A DNA stretch of 11,137 bases from a virus. Lineage: Duplodnaviria > Heunggongvirae > Uroviricota > Caudoviricetes. Positions 3,526-11,137 of the stretch are shown one piece after another (position 1 is the stretch's first letter; each line of letters opens with the position of its first letter). Made by a program: the position numbers and the translations under genes. The notes beneath the pieces were generated by a model that did not search any database, was not told where the DNA came from, and saw only the letters and a program-made list of their open reading frames with translations. The stretch lies in the IMG/VR virus record IMGVR_UViG_2541047596_000006. The stretch is one strand, 5' to 3'.

Positions 3526-3831
3526 ATACAGCGAACTCCATTGGTTTAGTTGGATATTTACTGTGCTGGACAAAAACGGTTTGCGGGGAAATCTTAGTTA
3601 AGTAGAATGACTGCGGGTGCTTGAGGCTATCTGCCTCGGGCATGGACACCAACGGCAGATAGAGAAAAGCCCCAGTTAACATTACGCGTCCTGCAAGACG
3701 CTTAACATTAATCTGAGGCCAATTTCATGCTAGACACATGTAGGTTAGCCTCTTACGTGCCGAAAGGCACGGAGAAGCAGGCTATTGTTAACACCAAGCT
3801 GTAATGTCCCCTTTGAACCATTCTAAAATGT

Positions 3832-3859: not shown

Positions 3860-5173
3860 ATGATCAAAGAGACTGTTACGATGAGTCATAAGGAACTCCA
3901 CCGACTTCAGATTATTCAGGAACAAGCTGCGGCACGCATTGGCATTTCTATTCGGCAGGTTAAACGTCTGGTGCAACGGTATAGAAATGAAGGGCCTTCT
4001 GGTCTGGTTTCCCACCGACGTGGAAAGCGTCCTAATAATTCCTTTTCTACTGAATTCAGAGCAACAGTAATTTCACTCCTCAAAGGCCGTTACGCTGATT
4101 TTGGACCTACGTTTGCGTGCGAAAAATTGCGCGAGATACACGGTTTATCTTTATCCGTTGAAACTCTCAGAAAGTGGATGATAGAAGAGGGGTTATGGCG
4201 TGAACGCCGTCGTAAAATTGCCCGTATATATCAACGCCGCATGCGACGACCATCTTACGGTGAACTGATCCAGATTGATGGCTCACCTCATGACTGGTTT
4301 GAAAATCGAGGCCCCAGATGTACACTGATCGTTTTCATTGATGATGCCACCAGTGCGTTGATGGCGTTGCGTTTTGTGCCTGCTGAAACAACCCGGGCTT
4401 ACATGGAAACCCTCCGGGGTTACCTTAATGATCATGGCGTACCGCTCGCTCTCTACTCTGATAGACACAGTATATTCAGGGTAAATAACCCAGAGCGGGA
4501 AGGTGAGCTGACCCAGTTCACTCGTGCGATAAAGACACTGGGCATCGAGCCAATCCATGCCAACAGCCCGCAGGCAAAAGGGCGGGTAGAGCGCGCCAAT
4601 CAGACACTACAGGACAGGCTGGTCAAAGAAATGCGGCTTCAGAATATCAGTGATATTGAAACAGCAAATGCATGGTTGCCGACCTTTATTGAAGCCTATA
4701 ACAACCGGTTCGCTACGTCGCCTCGTACTACTGATAATGCTCATCTTGATGTGCACCATTCTGAAGAGGAACTGGGTTATATCTTCAGCCTACAGGCGAA
4801 GCGCGTTCTGTCTAAAAATCTCACTTTCCAGTACAAAAGCAGTGCGTTTCAGGTACGCAGTGAGGGCCGGGGATATCGACTTAGGCATTCGGTTGTTACT
4901 GTATGCGAGAACTTTGACGGTGAAATTAACGTTCTGTATGACGGGAAAGCGCTGGGCTGGGAAAAGTATGTTGATGGCCCGGAGCCTATACCACTGGATG
5001 ATGAAAAGAGTGTCCATGAACGAGTGGATAATGCCCGTATTGATTTACGCTCAAAATACTATGTTAAACCTAAAGCTGACCATCCCTGGCTTACGCGCCG
5101 AACGCAAAGTCATCAGCAAGTTAAGCCCCCGAAGTTACCTAAAAAGAAGCCTGATCCCGATAAAAAAGATTGA
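3860..5173 (+). CDS. DDE transposase of the rve/integrase-core superfamily with N-terminal helix-turn-helix; most consistent with the ISNCY (IS1202 group) or IS481 family
   Basis: 437 aa. N-terminal helix-turn-helix (...RIGISIRQVKRLVQRYRNEG...). Catalytic core with D (LIQIDGSPH), D (LYSDRHSIF) and E (KGRVERANQTLQ) at the spacing typical of retroviral-integrase-like transposases. Basic C-terminal tail. Met8 (MSHKELHRL) is an alternative start. Confidence 0.85.
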   Translation: MIKETVTMSHKELHRLQIIQEQAAARIGISIRQVKRLVQRYRNEGPSGLVSHRRGKRPNNSFSTEFRATVISLLKGRYADFGPTFACEKLREIHGLSLSVETLRKWMIEEGLWRERRRKIARIYQRRMRRPSYGELIQIDGSPHDWFENRGPRCTLIVFIDDATSALMALRFVPAETTRAYMETLRGYLNDHGVPLALYSDRHSIFRVNNPEREGELTQFTRAIKTLGIEPIHANSPQAKGRVERANQTLQDRLVKEMRLQNISDIETANAWLPTFIEAYNNRFATSPRTTDNAHLDVHHSEEELGYIFSLQAKRVLSKNLTFQYKSSAFQVRSEGRGYRLRHSVVTVCENFDGEINVLYDGKALGWEKYVDGPEPIPLDDEKSVHERVDNARIDLRSKYYVKPKADHPWLTRRTQSHQQVKPPKLPKKKPDPDKKD

Positions 5174-6474: not shown

Positions 6475-6714
6475 ATGGGTAGCATTAACCTGCGTATTGA
6501 CGATGAACTTAAAGCGCGTTCTTACGCCGCGCTTGAAAAAATGGGTGTAACTCCTTCTGAAGCGCTTCGTCTCATGCTCGAGTATATCGCTGACAATGAA
6601 CGCTTGCCGTTCAAACAGACACTCCTGAGTGATGAAGATGCTGAACTTGTGGAGATAGTGAAAGAACGGCTTCGTAATCCTAAGCCAGTACGTGTGACGC
6701 TGGATGAACTCTGA
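6475..6714 (+). CDS. relB: RelB antitoxin (type II toxin-antitoxin)
   Basis: The 79-aa product MGSINLRIDDELKARSYAALEKMGVTPSEALR... is near-identical to my recollection of E. coli RelB. Its stop overlaps the relE start (TGATG). Confidence 0.95.
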   Translation: MGSINLRIDDELKARSYAALEKMGVTPSEALRLMLEYIADNERLPFKQTLLSDEDAELVEIVKERLRNPKPVRVTLDEL

Positions 6715-7001
6715 TGGCGTATTTTCTGGATTTTGACGAGCGGGCACTAAAGGAATGGCGAAAGCTGGGCTCGACGGTACGTGAACAGTTGAAAAAGAAG
6801 CTGGTTGAAGTACTTGAGTCACCCCGGATTGAAGCAAACAAGCTCCGTGGTATGCCTGATTGTTACAAGATTAAGCTCCGGTCTTCAGGCTATCGCCTTG
6901 TATACCAGGTTATAGACGAGAAAGTTGTCGTTTTCGTGATTTCTGTTGGGAAAAGAGAACGCTCGGAAGTATATAGCGAGGCGGTCAAACGCATTCTCTG
7001 A
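6714..7001 (+). CDS. relE: RelE toxin (ribosome-dependent mRNA interferase)
   Basis: The 95-aa product MAYFLDFDERALKEWRKLGSTVREQLKKKL...VISVGKRERSEVY matches E. coli RelE and is translationally coupled to relB. Confidence 0.95.
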   Translation: MAYFLDFDERALKEWRKLGSTVREQLKKKLVEVLESPRIEANKLRGMPDCYKIKLRSSGYRLVYQVIDEKVVVFVISVGKRERSEVYSEAVKRIL

Positions 7002-7072: not shown

Positions 7073-7228
7073 ATGAAGCAGCAAAAGGCGATGTTAATCG
7101 CCCTGATCGTCATCTGTTTAACCGTCATAGTGACGGCACTGGTAACGAGGAAAGACCTCTGCGAGGTACGAATCCGAACCGGCCAGACGGAGGTCGCTGT
7201 CTTCACAGCTTACGAACCTGAGGAGTAA
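7073..7228 (+). CDS. hokD: Hok-family type I toxin (HokD/RelF), 51 aa
   Basis: Not in the supplied ORF track (under 60 aa). My translation is MKQQKAMLIALIVICLTVIVTALVTRKDLCEVRIRTGQTEVAVFTAYEPEE: an N-terminal transmembrane helix and the conserved Hok C-terminal half. It is the third gene after relBE, as in Qin. Confidence 0.85.
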   Translation: MKQQKAMLIALIVICLTVIVTALVTRKDLCEVRIRTGQTEVAVFTAYEPEE

Positions 7229-7296
7229 GAGACCCGGCGGGGGAGAAATCCCTCGCCACCTCTGATGTGGCAGGCATCCTCAACGCACCCGCACTT

Positions 7297-7327
7297 AACC
7301 CGCTTCGGCGGGTTTTTGTTTTTATTT
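7297..7327 (+). terminator. Rho-independent terminator ending the relBE-hokD transcript
   Basis: AACCCGC-ttcg-GCGGGTT stem-loop followed by TTTTTGTTTTTATTTT. Confidence 0.6.
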
Positions 7328-7438
7328 TCAACGCGTTTGAAGTTCTGGACGGTGCCGGAATAGAATCAAAAATACTTAAGTAGCGCGCAGGGATAAGAGG
7401 GATGGTCCCTTAAGGGTAAAGGGATTGTTCTGGATGAA

Positions 7439-7672
7439 AAAAGAACCCGGTTTCATGGCGTACCGGTATATAAGATTTGTGGGCGTTGTAATGGAAACCG
7501 GTTTAGTCGTTTACCGACCACGCTGGCACGACGTCATGTCCAGAAGCTGGTACCAGACCTGACCGATTATCAGTGGTATAAGGGGTATGCGGACGTCATT
7601 GGTAAACTGGTAACAAAGTGCTGGCAGGAAGAAGCATACGCGGAAGCGCAATTGAGGAAGGTGACGAGATAA
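7439..7672 (+). pseudogene. 3' remnant of a Q-like late antiterminator gene (no start codon)
   Basis: Open frame without an ATG start translating to KRTRFHGVPVYKICGRCNGNRFSRLPTTLARRHVQKLVPDLTDYQWYKGYADVIGKLVTKCWQEEAYAEAQLRKVTR. It has a Cys-rich zinc-finger-like segment and a basic C-terminus, and sits where Qin carries quuQ, between hokD and cspF. The family call is by recollection and context. Confidence 0.35.
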
Positions 7673-7703
7673 ATGATTTTTGCTGAAGATGGCGACATGA
7701 TGT

Positions 7704-7732
7704 TTGCATTTTTCAAAAAATATGGATAAAAT
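7704..7732 (+). promoter_or_regulatory. Strong sigma-70-like promoter (TTGCAT-17nt-TAAAAT), candidate late promoter (PR'-like) downstream of the Q remnant
   Basis: The -35 TTGCAT and -10 TAAAAT with a 17-nt spacer were read directly. It lies about 35 nt past the Q-remnant stop and about 45 nt before a strong terminator, the arrangement of PR'/qut/tR' in lambdoid phages. Confidence 0.35.
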
Positions 7733-7777
7733 TTTTTCAACGATGGGCTTTGTATACCCGACGTTAAGAAAAAGTAG

Positions 7778-7805
7778 AAAACCCGCTGATGAGCGGGTTT
7801 TGTGC
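7778..7805. terminator. Strong, probably bidirectional, intrinsic terminator (AAAACCCGCT-gatg-AGCGGGTTTT)
   Basis: A 10-bp perfect stem with T-rich flanks on both strands. Confidence 0.55.
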
Positions 7806-8093
7806 TTTAAATGGGGCAATGGTAATGTTGAATCTCATCCCGGGACTCATGTCTGTTAACTTATTATTTAGCTGGTGACTTGGTTATTTGCCTGATGTTT
7901 AAAATGTTTTCTTCCAGTACAATGTCCCTAAACACAATGAGTCTGCTTATTATATTATTAGCAGAGCTATTACGGCCAAAGTACAGCATAAGCTTTTAAA
8001 GCCAATCAACCAGTCATCAAGACAGACGGGGTTATTCATAAAAACTCTCCATGTGTGATCCGATGGGGCCTGAAATTAAAGCTTTAATATAGC

Positions 8094-8306
8094 TCATGAA
8101 AGGTAAACATTGGCAGCTGAAGGGCCACGCAGACCATTTATCCGGCAAAATTCCACGCGTAATCCGGTGGTAATTTCTTCTGCATCGCGGAGATTGAGCG
8201 CTGAAACATGAAGCTGGACATCGATACGACCATCGGATGGGGTGATAAGACCCTTGCCGCTTTTGCCGTCAAAGGTTTTGACAATTCCTGTCATTTTACG
8301 GGACAA
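8094..8306 (-). CDS. cspF: CspA-family cold-shock protein paralog (CspF-like), 70 aa
   Basis: [70 protein letters not shown] has the cold-shock-domain architecture but degenerate RNP motifs, as in CspF/CspH. It is divergent from cspB, as in Qin. Confidence 0.85.
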
Positions 8307-8606
8307 AAAAATTCCTTAATACTGATAACTTGGCGCACTATACACACGTTCCTGAAGAAAGCTATAGTTTTTTGATGGGGTTGAAGATGGCTGGATGTCT
8401 AAAATAAACATTGCTTCATATGTTCAACTATGCGTTAATGATTGCGTCGGTTTGAAGAACAGACGATATACGAAGTAGTTTACTAAAGCAGTTCTCATTT
8501 CAGGTGTTATTCACTTATTCCTTCTTTGAGTCTCTCCAATTAAGTACGAAGTCGTTTCTGTTATGCAAACCATTTATGCCGAAAGGCTCAAGTTAAGGAA
8601 TGTAGA

Positions 8607-8822
8607 ATGTCAAATAAAATGACTGGTTTAGTAAAATGGTTTAACGCTGATAAAGGTTTCGGCTTTATTTCTCCTGTTGATGGTAGTAAAGATGTGTTTG
8701 TGCATTTTTCTGCGATTCAGAATGATAATTATCGAACCTTATTTGAAGGTCAAAAGGTTACCTTCTCTATAGAGAGTGGTGCTAAAGGTCCTGCAGCAGC
8801 AAATGTCATCATTACTGATTAA
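8607..8822 (+). CDS. cspB: Cold-shock protein CspB, 71 aa
   Basis: [67 protein letters not shown]... has the canonical RNP1 (KGFGFI) and RNP2 (VFVHF) motifs. A long upstream untranslated region (about 300 nt to cspF) is typical of cold-shock genes. Confidence 0.9.
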
Positions 8823-8933
8823 AATTCATCGCTCGTCTGTATACGATAACGAAGAAGGCTGATGCCTGAGTAGAGATACGGACAGAGTAGTGAATATTGG
8901 ATCTCTTTAATAAAAAGTAAGGAGGTCCAATAC

Positions 8934-8969
8934 ATGAAACAATGGCTAGCATATTTGGCAAAATCTTAA
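8934..8969 (+). other. Tiny ORF (11 codons, MKQWLAYLAKS) with a consensus Shine-Dalgarno; function unknown
   Basis: TAAGGAGGT lies 8 nt upstream of the ATG. Two further tiny overlapping ORFs follow (MLTIVVKCRFAA at about 8990; MNSFTAEANCWHGKTKCVSG, coupled by ATGA) before the terminator at 9104. Confidence 0.25.
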
Positions 8970-9103
8970 TCAGGAAAAGTATGCTAACCATTGTGGTGAA
9001 GTGCAGGTTTGCTGCATGAATAGTTTTACAGCAGAAGCTAACTGCTGGCATGGCAAAACAAAGTGCGTAAGTGGATGACTCCCACAAAAAGCACCACAAT
9101 CTC

Positions 9104-9130
9104 AAACCCGCTCAGGCGGGTTTTTTATTA
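9104..9130 (+). terminator. Rho-independent terminator (AAACCCGC-tcag-GCGGGTTT followed by TTTATTAT)
   Basis: An 8-bp GC-rich stem followed by a T-tract on the plus strand; it terminates the cspB and tiny-ORF transcript. Confidence 0.6.
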
Positions 9131-9185
9131 TCTGCTTTAAATATATTATTAAAATATAAAAAATACTTGTTACTAATAAAATCAA

Positions 9186-9356
9186 TCAGGCTACAGCTTT
9201 AAGATTTGTCTGGAATACTTTGTTGCAATGAGGGCAGATCAAAAGGGCACCTTTTTGTACTCTTGAAAAACTGTGTTCTGACTCTTGGGTGCAGTTTGGG
9301 CAGGAACATTTAACGAGATAATTACGGCGTGATTTTGAGTTTTTACGTTCTGACAT
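9186..9356 (-). CDS. Small zinc-ribbon-like protein (56 aa; C-x-C-x2-C ... C-x2-C)
   Basis: From the internal Met: MSERKNSKSRRNYLVKCSCPNCTQESEHSFSRVQKGALLICPHCNKVFQTNLKAVA. AGGA lies 9-12 nt upstream. The ORF track's longer version (start at 9407) adds a hydrophobic extension without a ribosome-binding site. It may correspond to one of the small Qin/Rac cold-shock-associated genes, but I cannot confirm. Confidence 0.45.
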   Translation of the reverse strand: MSERKNSKSRRNYLVKCSCPNCTQESEHSFSRVQKGALLICPHCNKVFQTNLKAVA

Positions 9357-9575
9357 AGGCTTTTCCTGTATAAATGGCCGTATACAGTACACTAAATATG
9401 AAAACATTTCTCGTATTATTATTTTATATATGACTTTCTTTCAAAATAATTACCCACATTTTTAATGTGTATGTTTTTTTAGCGCCGTTGAGAACAACGT
9501 GTGCTGTCAAAACTACCCCGTAGACTCCGATCTTTTCAAACATATTGCACCATCCGTGTACATCGGGGTGAGGAT

Positions 9576-9791
9576 ATGAAATCAATGGATAAGTTAACAA
9601 CAGGTGTTGCCTATGGCACATCGGCGGGTAATGCTGGTTTCTGGGCATTGCAGTTACTCGATAAAGTAACTCCGTCACAGTGGGCTGCAATCGGTGTGCT
9701 GGGTAGCCTGGTTTTTGGCCTGCTGACGTATCTGACAAATCTTTATTTCAAGATTAAAGAAGACAGGCGTAAGGCTGCGAGAGGAGAGTAA
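9576..9791 (+). CDS. essQ: Phage holin, 71 aa, lambdoid phage 21 S-type (pinholin-like) with a dual-start motif
   Basis: [71 protein letters not shown] has two transmembrane segments and a charged C-terminus. The Met1-Lys-Ser-Met4 start resembles the S21 holin/antiholin dual start. The ORF track starts 25 codons upstream (9501) without supporting signals. Confidence 0.85.
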
Positions 9792-9795
9792 TCCA

Positions 9796-10103
9796 ATGAC
9801 TCAAGACTATGAACTGGTTGTGAAAGGAGTCCGTAATTTTGAGAATAAAGTTACGGTAACTGTAGCCTTACAGGACAAAGAACGCTTTGACGGTGAAATT
9901 TTTGACCTGGATGTCGCCATGGACCGTGTTGAAGGAGCTGCGCTGGAGTTTTATGAGGCAGCAGCCAGAAGGAGCGCCCGGCAAGTCTTCCTGGAAGTAG
10001 CAGAAAAATTGTCAGAAAAAGTTGAGTCTTATCTGCAGCATCAGTACTCCTTTAAGATTGAAAATCCTGCCAATAAGCACGAGCGTCCTCATCATAAATA
10101 TCT

Positions 10104-10107
<4 letters not shown>
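9796..10107 (+). CDS. ydfR: Conserved phage protein of unknown function located between holin and endolysin (YdfR-like), 103 aa
   Basis: Ribosome-binding site GAGGAGAG. It sits between the holin and the endolysin as in Qin (essQ-ydfR-rrrQ), and its stop overlaps the endolysin start (ATGA). Confidence 0.75.

Positions 10108-11137
<1,030 letters not shown>

Follow-up and report, generated by a model that had tools for sequence, protein, structure and literature searches.

Gene Organization of the Locus

The stretch of DNA analyzed here, hereafter called the window, is 11,137 nucleotides long and, judging by its sequence, is as a whole a decayed copy of Qin, the lambdoid cryptic prophage of Escherichia coli. 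Four complete E. coli genomes (FORC_082, NCCP12480, B-JRPT-4119 and O15_8X) matched the segment 7230–8100 with 100% identity, and the Qin prophage of K-12 MG1655 corresponded to the window from 7411 to 11115 with a single base differing. Based on the RefSeq annotation of the identical genomes, the order of genes, relB–relE–hokD–Q remnant–cspF–cspB–essD–ydfR–rrrQ–rzpQ, agrees with that of Qin.

The genes upstream of the region of interest are relB (6475–6714), relE (6714–7001) and hokD (7073–7228). They are followed on the plus strand by a pseudogene of an antitermination protein with a missing N-terminus (7412–7672, annotated in all four identical genomes). Further downstream, RefSeq places a 29-aa ORF (7950–8039) and cspF (8094–8306) on the minus strand, then cspB (8607–8822), and then ynfU, also on the minus strand, between cspB and essD.

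The earlier note on this DNA had pointed to a lysis cassette downstream of the antiterminator gene, and such a cassette was indeed found. The lysis genes essD (9576–9791), ydfR (9796–10107) and rrrQ (10104–10637), placed by the RefSeq annotations of FORC_082 and O15_8X and by the ORF list, and rzpQ (from 10634), placed by RefSeq and the ORF list, are located 3′ of the putative control module and on the same strand (plus), the late genes as a set spanning 9576–11115. The sequence of rzpQ departs from its relatives at base 11116, and the final 22 bases of the window are unlike rzpQ. No genome in the collection was collinear with the entire window. An additional 4,666 bp, which include dicA, dicC and the replication gene O, are present in O15_8X but not in the window.

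The Antiterminator Remnant and the Deletion Junction

The reading frame that closes at TAA 7670–7672 encodes 86 residues, which were 100% identical to residues 165–250 of QuuQ (YdfT) of K-12, a protein with a full length of 250 aa. This 3′ remnant of quuQ/ydfT (7412–7672, plus strand) consists of 86 codons and a stop codon and has no start codon. No ORF of at least 20 aa beginning with ATG, GTG or TTG was found in its frame, and an in-frame TAA is located 5′ of it at 7394–7396. The earlier description of the gene as the 3′ portion of a Q gene devoid of a start codon is thus correct. Its left limit had been set at 7439, which is 27 nt too far to the right: the true limit is a deletion junction at 7411–7413, and the remnant runs from 7412.

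To locate the junction, exact matches to the K-12 locus were extended from either side, and the sequences were aligned. Its TAA is common to both parental sequences (a 3-bp microhomology), and the hokD–rem intergenic region is fused here to quuQ codon 164/165. In comparison with K-12, 2,186 bp are absent at this point, comprising rem, a hypothetical gene, ydfU and codons 1–164 of quuQ. With only codons 165–250 left, the window carries no functional cognate Q in cis.

The remnant matched the Pfam family PF03589, 'Antitermination protein Q', with an E-value of 1.7e-27 and 95.8 bits (cut-off 26.7), covering profile positions 10–87 of 87. A Pfam search with QuuQ returned PF03589 plus the DnaJ CXXCXGXG motif (PF00684) and nothing else; lambda Q and QuuQ score in one Pfam family, PF03589. 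The alignment with Q proteins that had been proposed as a check assigns the remnant to the lambda type, since it belongs to PF03589 and full-length QuuQ matched the lambda Q chains (PDB 7UBM, 4MO1 and 7UBJ) with an E-value of 4.6e-36. In the PDB sequence search with QuuQ at E-values up to 1, the lambda Q chains were the sole antiterminators, and none was named phage 21 Q. Of the lambda, 82 and 21 types named in the earlier note, the comparison thus covered lambda Q and phage 21 Q, the latter also being of solved structure.

According to the alignment, Cys118/Cys121 and Cys144/Cys147 of lambda Q, its zinc ligands, correspond to Cys161/Cys164 and Cys187/Cys190 of QuuQ, respectively. The remnant begins at Lys165; the first CxxC pair (Cys161/Cys164) is therefore gone, while Cys187/Cys190 are retained, and two of the four cysteines aligned with the lambda Q CxxC pairs are absent. 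Without a start codon, the remnant should not be produced, and, starting at Lys165 with half of the last CxxC pair set missing, it should not fold even if it were translated.

The Putative Promoter and the Predicted Initial Transcribed Region

The stop codon of the Q remnant (7670–7672) is followed on the plus strand by a putative PR′-like late promoter with the −35 hexamer TTGCAT (7704–7709), the 17-nt spacer TTTTCAAAAAATATGGA (7710–7726) and the −10 hexamer TAAAAT (7727–7732). The arrangement TTGCAT-17-TAAAAT described in the earlier note is therefore present, at 7704–7732. This arrangement of Q stop codon and −35 hexamer recurs in K-12 and eight phages whose Q is intact. The −35 hexamer was invariant in nine of nine prophage and phage copies and aligns with TTGACT of lambda PR′; at −10, the relatives have TAAGAT or TAGGAT. 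In lambda, the Q-binding element (QBE) sits between the −35 and −10 hexamers. The spacer is a candidate QBE of qut; 14 of its 17 positions were invariant in nine copies, a hand count against the spacer of lambda PR′ gave 11 matches in 17, and by analogy with lambda it would be the site at which Q binds.

The predicted transcription start is A7739, the first base of the initial transcribed block AACGATGGGCTTTGTAT (7739–7755), which was assigned by its identity with lambda PR′ and by its conservation (16 of 17 positions invariant in nine copies). This block begins with AACGATGGG (7739–7747), located 6 nt past the −10 hexamer; it is the same word at the same distance as in lambda PR′ and was invariant in all nine copies. 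Lambda PR′ is composed of TTGACT, a 17-nt spacer, TAAATT, TGACTC and AACGATGGG, and its counterpart in the window of TTGCAT, a 17-nt spacer, TAAAAT, TTTTTC and AACGATGGG. The window contains a single instance of the pattern TTGNNT-17-TANNNT-6-AACGATGGG, whereas 200 shuffled sequences contained none.

The first six bases of the word, AACGAT (7739–7744), probably represent a −10-like sigma70 pause-inducing element, having the same sequence as in lambda. It has been shown for lambda that AACGAT at +1 to +6 is −10-like and holds sigma70, that the polymerase pauses at +16/+17 and that Q can then load (PMC4005639, PMC7876045). Given the identity with lambda PR′, a pause would be expected at the AACGAT of the window as well.

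The promoter had earlier been called near-consensus, which holds for the −10 hexamer (5/6) and fails for the −35 hexamer (3/6). The promoter scan itself preferred TTTGCA with an 18-nt spacer (−35 match of 4/6), with a total score of 9/12. Between 7000 and 9000, promoter-like sites showed no excess (7 against 4.5 ± 2.3 in shuffled sequences), and because such sites are not enriched, a consensus match alone carries no evidential weight. The evidence for the putative promoter is its lambda-type architecture and not its consensus score.

A search of the Cappable-seq supplements gave no match to a mapped start at K-12 1,642,422 (−), which corresponds to window 7739, and the RNET-seq tables of sigma70 pauses showed no relevant match at the module among the matches listed. 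Searches of the literature linking quuQ/ydfT to antitermination or small RNA gave no paper on a promoter between quuQ and cspF; the paper on the prophage sRNA svsR makes no mention of Qin, cspF, a late promoter, a terminator or antitermination. Small ORFs in the module, including a 51-aa TTG ORF at 7704–7859, were considered as genes and rejected: they span the putative promoter and the terminator, and past the hairpin the relatives have unrelated sequences.

The Terminator and the 3′ End of the RNA

A tR′-like intrinsic terminator (7778–7808, plus strand) was assigned on the basis of folding, conservation and Term-seq data. Its hairpin, AAAACCCGCT-GATG-AGCGGGTTTT (7778–7801), has a 10-bp stem (7778–7787 paired with 7792–7801) and a 4-nt loop, GATG, and is followed by GTGCTTT in a T-rich tail. 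The stem starts 45 nt past the −10 hexamer, in agreement with the earlier note, where a terminator with a 10-bp stem had been placed about 45 nt after the promoter. For the predicted 71-nt RNA (7739–7809), the folding energy was −30.4 kcal/mol against −13.2 ± 2.7 kcal/mol for shuffled sequences (z = −6.5). In the pattern scan, only the minus-strand version of the hairpin received a score, with the tail CTACTTTTTC; the plus-strand hairpin was missed because the T run was counted into the 10-bp stem.

The pairing was preserved in all relatives through G-U pairs and one-sided changes. In the covariation analysis of the terminator stem (nine sequences), zero pairs were changed on both sides, which is uninformative rather than negative; the structural support therefore comes from conservation, thermodynamics and Term-seq, not from covariation. 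In addition, the hairpin carries a terminator annotation in the records of phages SfV and Ayreon.

The segment 7673–7810 of the window corresponds to NC_000913.3 1,642,488–1,642,351 (−), where the sole annotation is "cryptic prophage Qin". In the Term-seq data of Adams et al. (2021) for MG1655, an "orphan" 3′ end is recorded at 1,642,356 (−) in three of three conditions, namely LB at OD 0.4, LB at OD 2.0 and M63 (PMC7815308, supplementary file 1), with the flanking sequence ...AAAACCCGCTGATGAGCGGGTTTTGTGC/TTTAAATGGG (PMC7815308). This position corresponds to C7805 of the window, the K-12 sequence being identical, and is the base at which the feature described in the earlier note ends. No opposite-strand 3′ end was recorded within the coordinate ranges searched around the hairpin (PMC7815308). 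Since the 3′ end lies on the plus strand of the window and none was found opposite to it in those ranges, the terminator works on the predicted strand. The K-12 RNA ending at 1,642,356 (−) presumably begins at PR′, and the 3′ end could partly stem from upstream read-through rather than from PR′.

An Rfam search at permissive E-values found no family at 7673–7810. A sub-threshold isrK-like match at 7237–7318 was the only one nearby.

Conservation and Distribution of the Module

The 171 bases at 7660–7830 matched 35 phage records. These include PhiR42_1 (100%), 2H10 (93%), Tritos, HannyBb, SfV, mEp460 and Ayreon, as well as fifteen Stx2c-converting phages and the Salmonella phages 118970_sal3 and F1055. 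In all eight phages whose sequences were fetched, a full 250-aa Q was found directly 5′ of the module. Compared with QuuQ, these proteins were 86–94% identical over residues 1–164 and 93–97% identical over residues 165–250. Among the carriers of a 92–97% identical Q (SfV, mEp460, 2H10, Ayreon and the Stx2c phages), the −35 hexamer, the spacer and the segment +1 to +17 were almost invariant.

The conservation of the separate segments was expressed as the mean pairwise identity in a nine-sequence alignment of prophage and live phage copies. The values were 1.00 for the −35 hexamer, 0.95 for the spacer, 0.87 for the −10 hexamer, 0.70 for the discriminator, 0.99 for +1 to +17, 0.67 for +18 to +39, 0.77 for the hairpin, 0.54 for the tail and 0.37 beyond the tail. 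This profile tracks the functional anatomy expected of a promoter, a qut site and a terminator. It is worth noting that phage 2H10 carries cspF and cspB 3′ of the module, as in Qin, and the arrangement is thus compatible with a live phage.

At the megablast level, the module was found in 1,628 of 5,426 complete E. coli genomes (~30%). In different strains, quuQ remnants of 162, 261, 324, 414 and 654 nt were observed, and in others IS1 insertions adjoin ydfT. To judge from these alleles, at least five different deletions, together with IS1 insertions, have damaged quuQ independently in different strains. In K-12 and about 1,600 other E. coli genomes, quuQ, whether intact or damaged in another way, is followed by the same promoter–terminator pair; the module is therefore nothing unusual, and it is only the orphaned state that is particular to this strain. 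An element of this kind is already known, the cryptic prophage that bears it is well known, and there is no departure from known biology.

Functional Interpretation

Based on the above results, we consider it highly probable that this is the module through which Qin controls its late genes (PR′, qut and tR′), and from which a 2,186-bp microhomology-mediated deletion has removed the 5′ two-thirds of the lambda-type Q gene. The PR′/qut/tR′ module is a member of its family by descent, but it is orphaned. A reading of this kind had been offered tentatively before, and it is now borne out by the lambda type of the Q protein, by the collinearity with lambda PR′, including AACGATGGG, by the Term-seq end in K-12 and by the lysis cassette downstream on the same strand.

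We suggest the following course of events at the module. RNA polymerase with sigma70 would start at about A7739. Sigma region 2 would then re-bind AACGAT at +1 to +6, and the polymerase would pause around +16/+17, as the identity with lambda PR′ implies. In an intact phage, Q bound at the spacer would load on the paused complex, which would pass the hairpin at 7778–7801 and proceed into the lysis and morphogenesis genes. Since the remnant is probably neither made nor folded, transcription in the window is expected to terminate at 7805 and to yield an RNA of about 67 nt, with the lysis cassette remaining silent from PR′. Provided in trans, a Q with 92–97% identity would probably still act at the site; such a Q could come from a phage of the SfV/mEp460/2H10/Stx2c group, whether co-resident or superinfecting.

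PR′ promoters are constitutive, and short terminated RNAs are made from them in lysogens (PMC7547250). A short constitutive RNA, which the earlier note had set against the control module as an alternative, is hence an expected by-product of such a module, as with lambda 6S RNA and StxS (PMC7547250); the RNA itself is retained here and its status as a rival explanation is not.

The value of the analysis lies mainly in annotation. It places an unannotated promoter, qut site and terminator in the gap between quuQ and cspF, and it gives the likeliest source of the "orphan" Term-seq 3′ end of K-12 at 1,642,356 (−). Furthermore, the lambda Q family has a second branch, of 250 aa, that shares the sigma70 pause element of lambda, AACGATGGG, letter for letter. 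The repeated damage to quuQ agrees with the idea that loss of the lysis activator is what tames cryptic prophages. If the short RNA or a trans-activatable qut site is functional, this would be one more case for the class of PR′-derived RNAs.

Alternative Explanations

It is conceivable, though in our opinion unlikely, that the ~67-nt RNA (7739–7805) is itself functional as a trans- or cis-acting sRNA, like StxS or IsrK of Gifsy-1, independently of Q, and that the promoter–terminator pair is kept for the sake of this RNA. The strong K-12 3′ end at the terminator in all three growth conditions agrees with this, and regulatory RNAs arising from termination downstream of PR′ have a precedent (PMC7547250). 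The segment +18 to +39, however, is the least conserved transcribed part (0.67), which argues against a conserved seed; the RNA matches no Rfam family, and no report of Hfq binding, processing or targets was found for the Qin RNA. A total of 1,246 E. coli genomes carry the module with an identity of 99% or more, but such identity within E. coli may just reflect the recent common descent of Qin. The module also persists in several strains with an independently truncated Q; since the search query contained the module, the sample is biased, and this retention is not readable as selection.

A more speculative proposal, to which we give little credence, is that the orphaned PR′–tR′ pair has been domesticated as a gene for a constitutive ~67-nt RNA, which the host has kept after repeated independent losses of Q. 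Such an RNA might act on transcripts of the host or of rival phages, or else the pair might serve as a sensor that sets off the resident lysis cassette once a related phage provides Q, resembling an abortive-infection trap.

We find it very unlikely that there is no active promoter at 7704–7732, that upstream transcription (e.g., from the rem-proximal promoter-like site at 7337–7366 that is now fused to the remnant) produces the RNA ending at 7805 and that the likeness to PR′ is a decayed relic. A promoter-like TTGAAG-18-TAGAAT does lie upstream at 7337–7366 on the same strand, the −35 hexamer of the putative PR′ is weak, and evidence of a start site was not found in Cappable-seq or, among the matches listed, in the RNET-seq tables. 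Nevertheless, phages deposited with complete genomes, whose late promoter has to work, have the identical or a nearly identical sequence, and the −35 hexamer, the spacer and +1 to +17 are the most conserved segments, as one would expect if the promoter and qut site are under constraint and not if they are a relic.

Finally, the idea that the hairpin is the terminator of the convergent minus-strand cspF and 29-aa ORF (7950–8039), with the promoter-like sequence beside it by coincidence, has in its favor the minus-strand call of the pattern scan with the tail CTACTTTTTC, the symmetry given by an A run 5′ of the stem and the convergence of cspF on the hairpin, but we regard it as extremely improbable and reject it as the main role, because the Term-seq end lies on the K-12 minus strand, i.e., the plus strand of the window, in three of three conditions with none opposite in the ranges searched, and because phages without cspF (SfV, Ayreon, mEp460, sal3, SKA5 and F1055) keep the hairpin at an equal distance from the promoter. 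In a secondary role, the hairpin may be bidirectional.

Comparison with Known Systems

The orphaned Qin module can be compared first with the late region of lambda, which consists of Q, PR′, qut, tR′ and the 6S RNA. Lambda Q belongs to the same protein family as QuuQ (PF03589), and in both cases the module directly follows the stop codon of Q. The spacing TTGNNT-17-TANNNT-6-AACGATGGG is shared, with 11 of the 17 spacer positions identical, and an intrinsic terminator is situated ahead of the lysis genes. The differences lie in the dimensions and surroundings of these elements. The Qin terminator is located at about +40 to +67, whereas that of lambda is at about +194, and the corresponding RNAs are about 67 nt and 194 nt long. 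QuuQ, with 250 aa, has four CxxCxGxG motifs against two in the 207-aa lambda Q. Unlike in lambda, cspF, cspB and ynfU are inserted in Qin between tR′ and the holin gene, and the Q gene of the window is destroyed.

With respect to its predicted RNA, the module resembles StxS (EcOnc15) and lambda 6S RNA, which belong to the class of PR′-to-tR′ transcripts of lysogens (PMC7547250); the Qin RNA likewise has a terminated 3′ end in K-12. It differs from StxS and 6S RNA in that no sequence similarity or Rfam match was detected for it.

The phages SfV, mEp460, Ayreon, 2H10, Tritos and the Stx2c phages show the same promoter/qut block and a terminator hairpin after a 250-aa Q. In contrast to the window, their Q is intact, and the genes beyond the terminator are unlike (identity 0.37). 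The closest counterpart is Qin of K-12 itself, which retains the full-length quuQ, ydfU and rem that the window is without; in its quuQ/ydfT–cspF intergenic region, the promoter–terminator pair and the Term-seq 3′ end lie in the same sequence as that of the window.

Inactivation of quuQ and Other Losses in the Qin Prophage

Based on the comparison with loci fetched from other E. coli genomes (L013-L016 and L001), the 5′ part of quuQ (ydfT), the Qin gene for the Q antiterminator QuuQ, was removed by at least five different, independent deletions. These deletions left remnants of 162, 261, 324, 414 and 654 nt. In addition, IS1 was found beside ydfT in several further E. coli genomes. Together, the deletions and the IS1 copies represent recurrent inactivation of the late-gene activator.

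Besides Q, this copy of Qin has lost its immunity and replication region, since 4,666 bp present in the E. coli strain O15_8X are absent from the window at about 1540-1545. The missing segment carries dicA, dicC, the replication gene O, a ydaT-family gene and an exonuclease fragment, and it also takes in the end of the excisionase gene and a portion of a DUF977 gene. At the other end of the window, positions 11116-11137 read GGTAATGACTCCAACTTATTGA and diverge there from rzpQ of K-12 and of the strain FORC_082. This sequence is probably an IS1 terminal inverted repeat, and rzpQ would be cut 16 nt short of its stop codon by this putative IS1 end.

RNA Elements and Transcript 3′ Ends

At 3615-3786 (+), the sok antitoxin RNA family (RF01794) was matched strongly (104 bits, E = 2.6e-23). 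The match is next to an ISNCY transposase fragment (about 3860-5173) and represents a second hok/sok-type locus of the window. The sok/ISNCY part of the window gave no alignment to the fetched K-12 stretch.

Directly 3′ of hokD, an Rfam search gave a sub-threshold match to isrK at 7237-7318 (+), which scored 25.1 bits where the gathering score is 50 (E = 0.046). This stretch ends in a terminator-like hairpin (7297-7314), and in K-12 the isrK-like element lies upstream of rem-ydfU-quuQ. Because Term-seq places a hokD 3′ end near window position 7265, the element may be just the 3′ end of the hokD mRNA.

A second RNA 3′ end labelled "orphan" in the K-12 Term-seq data (PMC7815308) lies at K-12 position 1,642,188 (-), corresponding to about 7973 (+) in the window, and is listed for just a single growth condition out of three. 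It is located on the same strand as the terminator tR′, 168 nt beyond it, and is antisense to a 29-aa ORF (7950-8039). An imperfect hairpin, GTCTGCT...AGCAGAG, precedes it without a T tail. Transcripts that read through tR′ and are then processed, or terminated with the help of Rho, could give rise to this 3′ end.

Comparison with Lambda and the Phage 2H10

The first 27 nt of the transcript predicted from the late promoter PR′ (7739-7765, +) can form a 5′ hairpin by pairing of AACG with CGUU and of UGGG with ACCC. CGTT at 7762-7765 was invariant in all nine relatives, while its flanks were variable. As read from the sequence, the lambda PR′ RNA (L011 788-810) has an analogous AACGA/UCGUU complementarity, between +1..+5 and +19..+23.

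Further downstream, the cspA thermoregulator 5′ UTR family (RF01766) was matched over its full length at 8446-8838 (+), with 158.8 bits, and the match spans the cspB leader and gene. Therefore, the phage late operon contains a cold-shock-regulated gene, placed after tR′ and ahead of the holin gene, and the live phage 2H10 likewise carries such a gene in this position.

K-12 QuuQ (quuQ, L002 4510-5262), whose gene was compared with its remnant at window positions 7412-7672, matched the DnaJ central-domain profile PF00684 (E = 1.3e-8). It contains four CxxCxGxG motifs (CEHCSGTG, CQHCHGKG, CRGCKGKG and CGRCNGN), whereas lambda Q has two; according to the alignment to lambda Q, the extra pair derives from a 39-residue insertion (residues 121-159).
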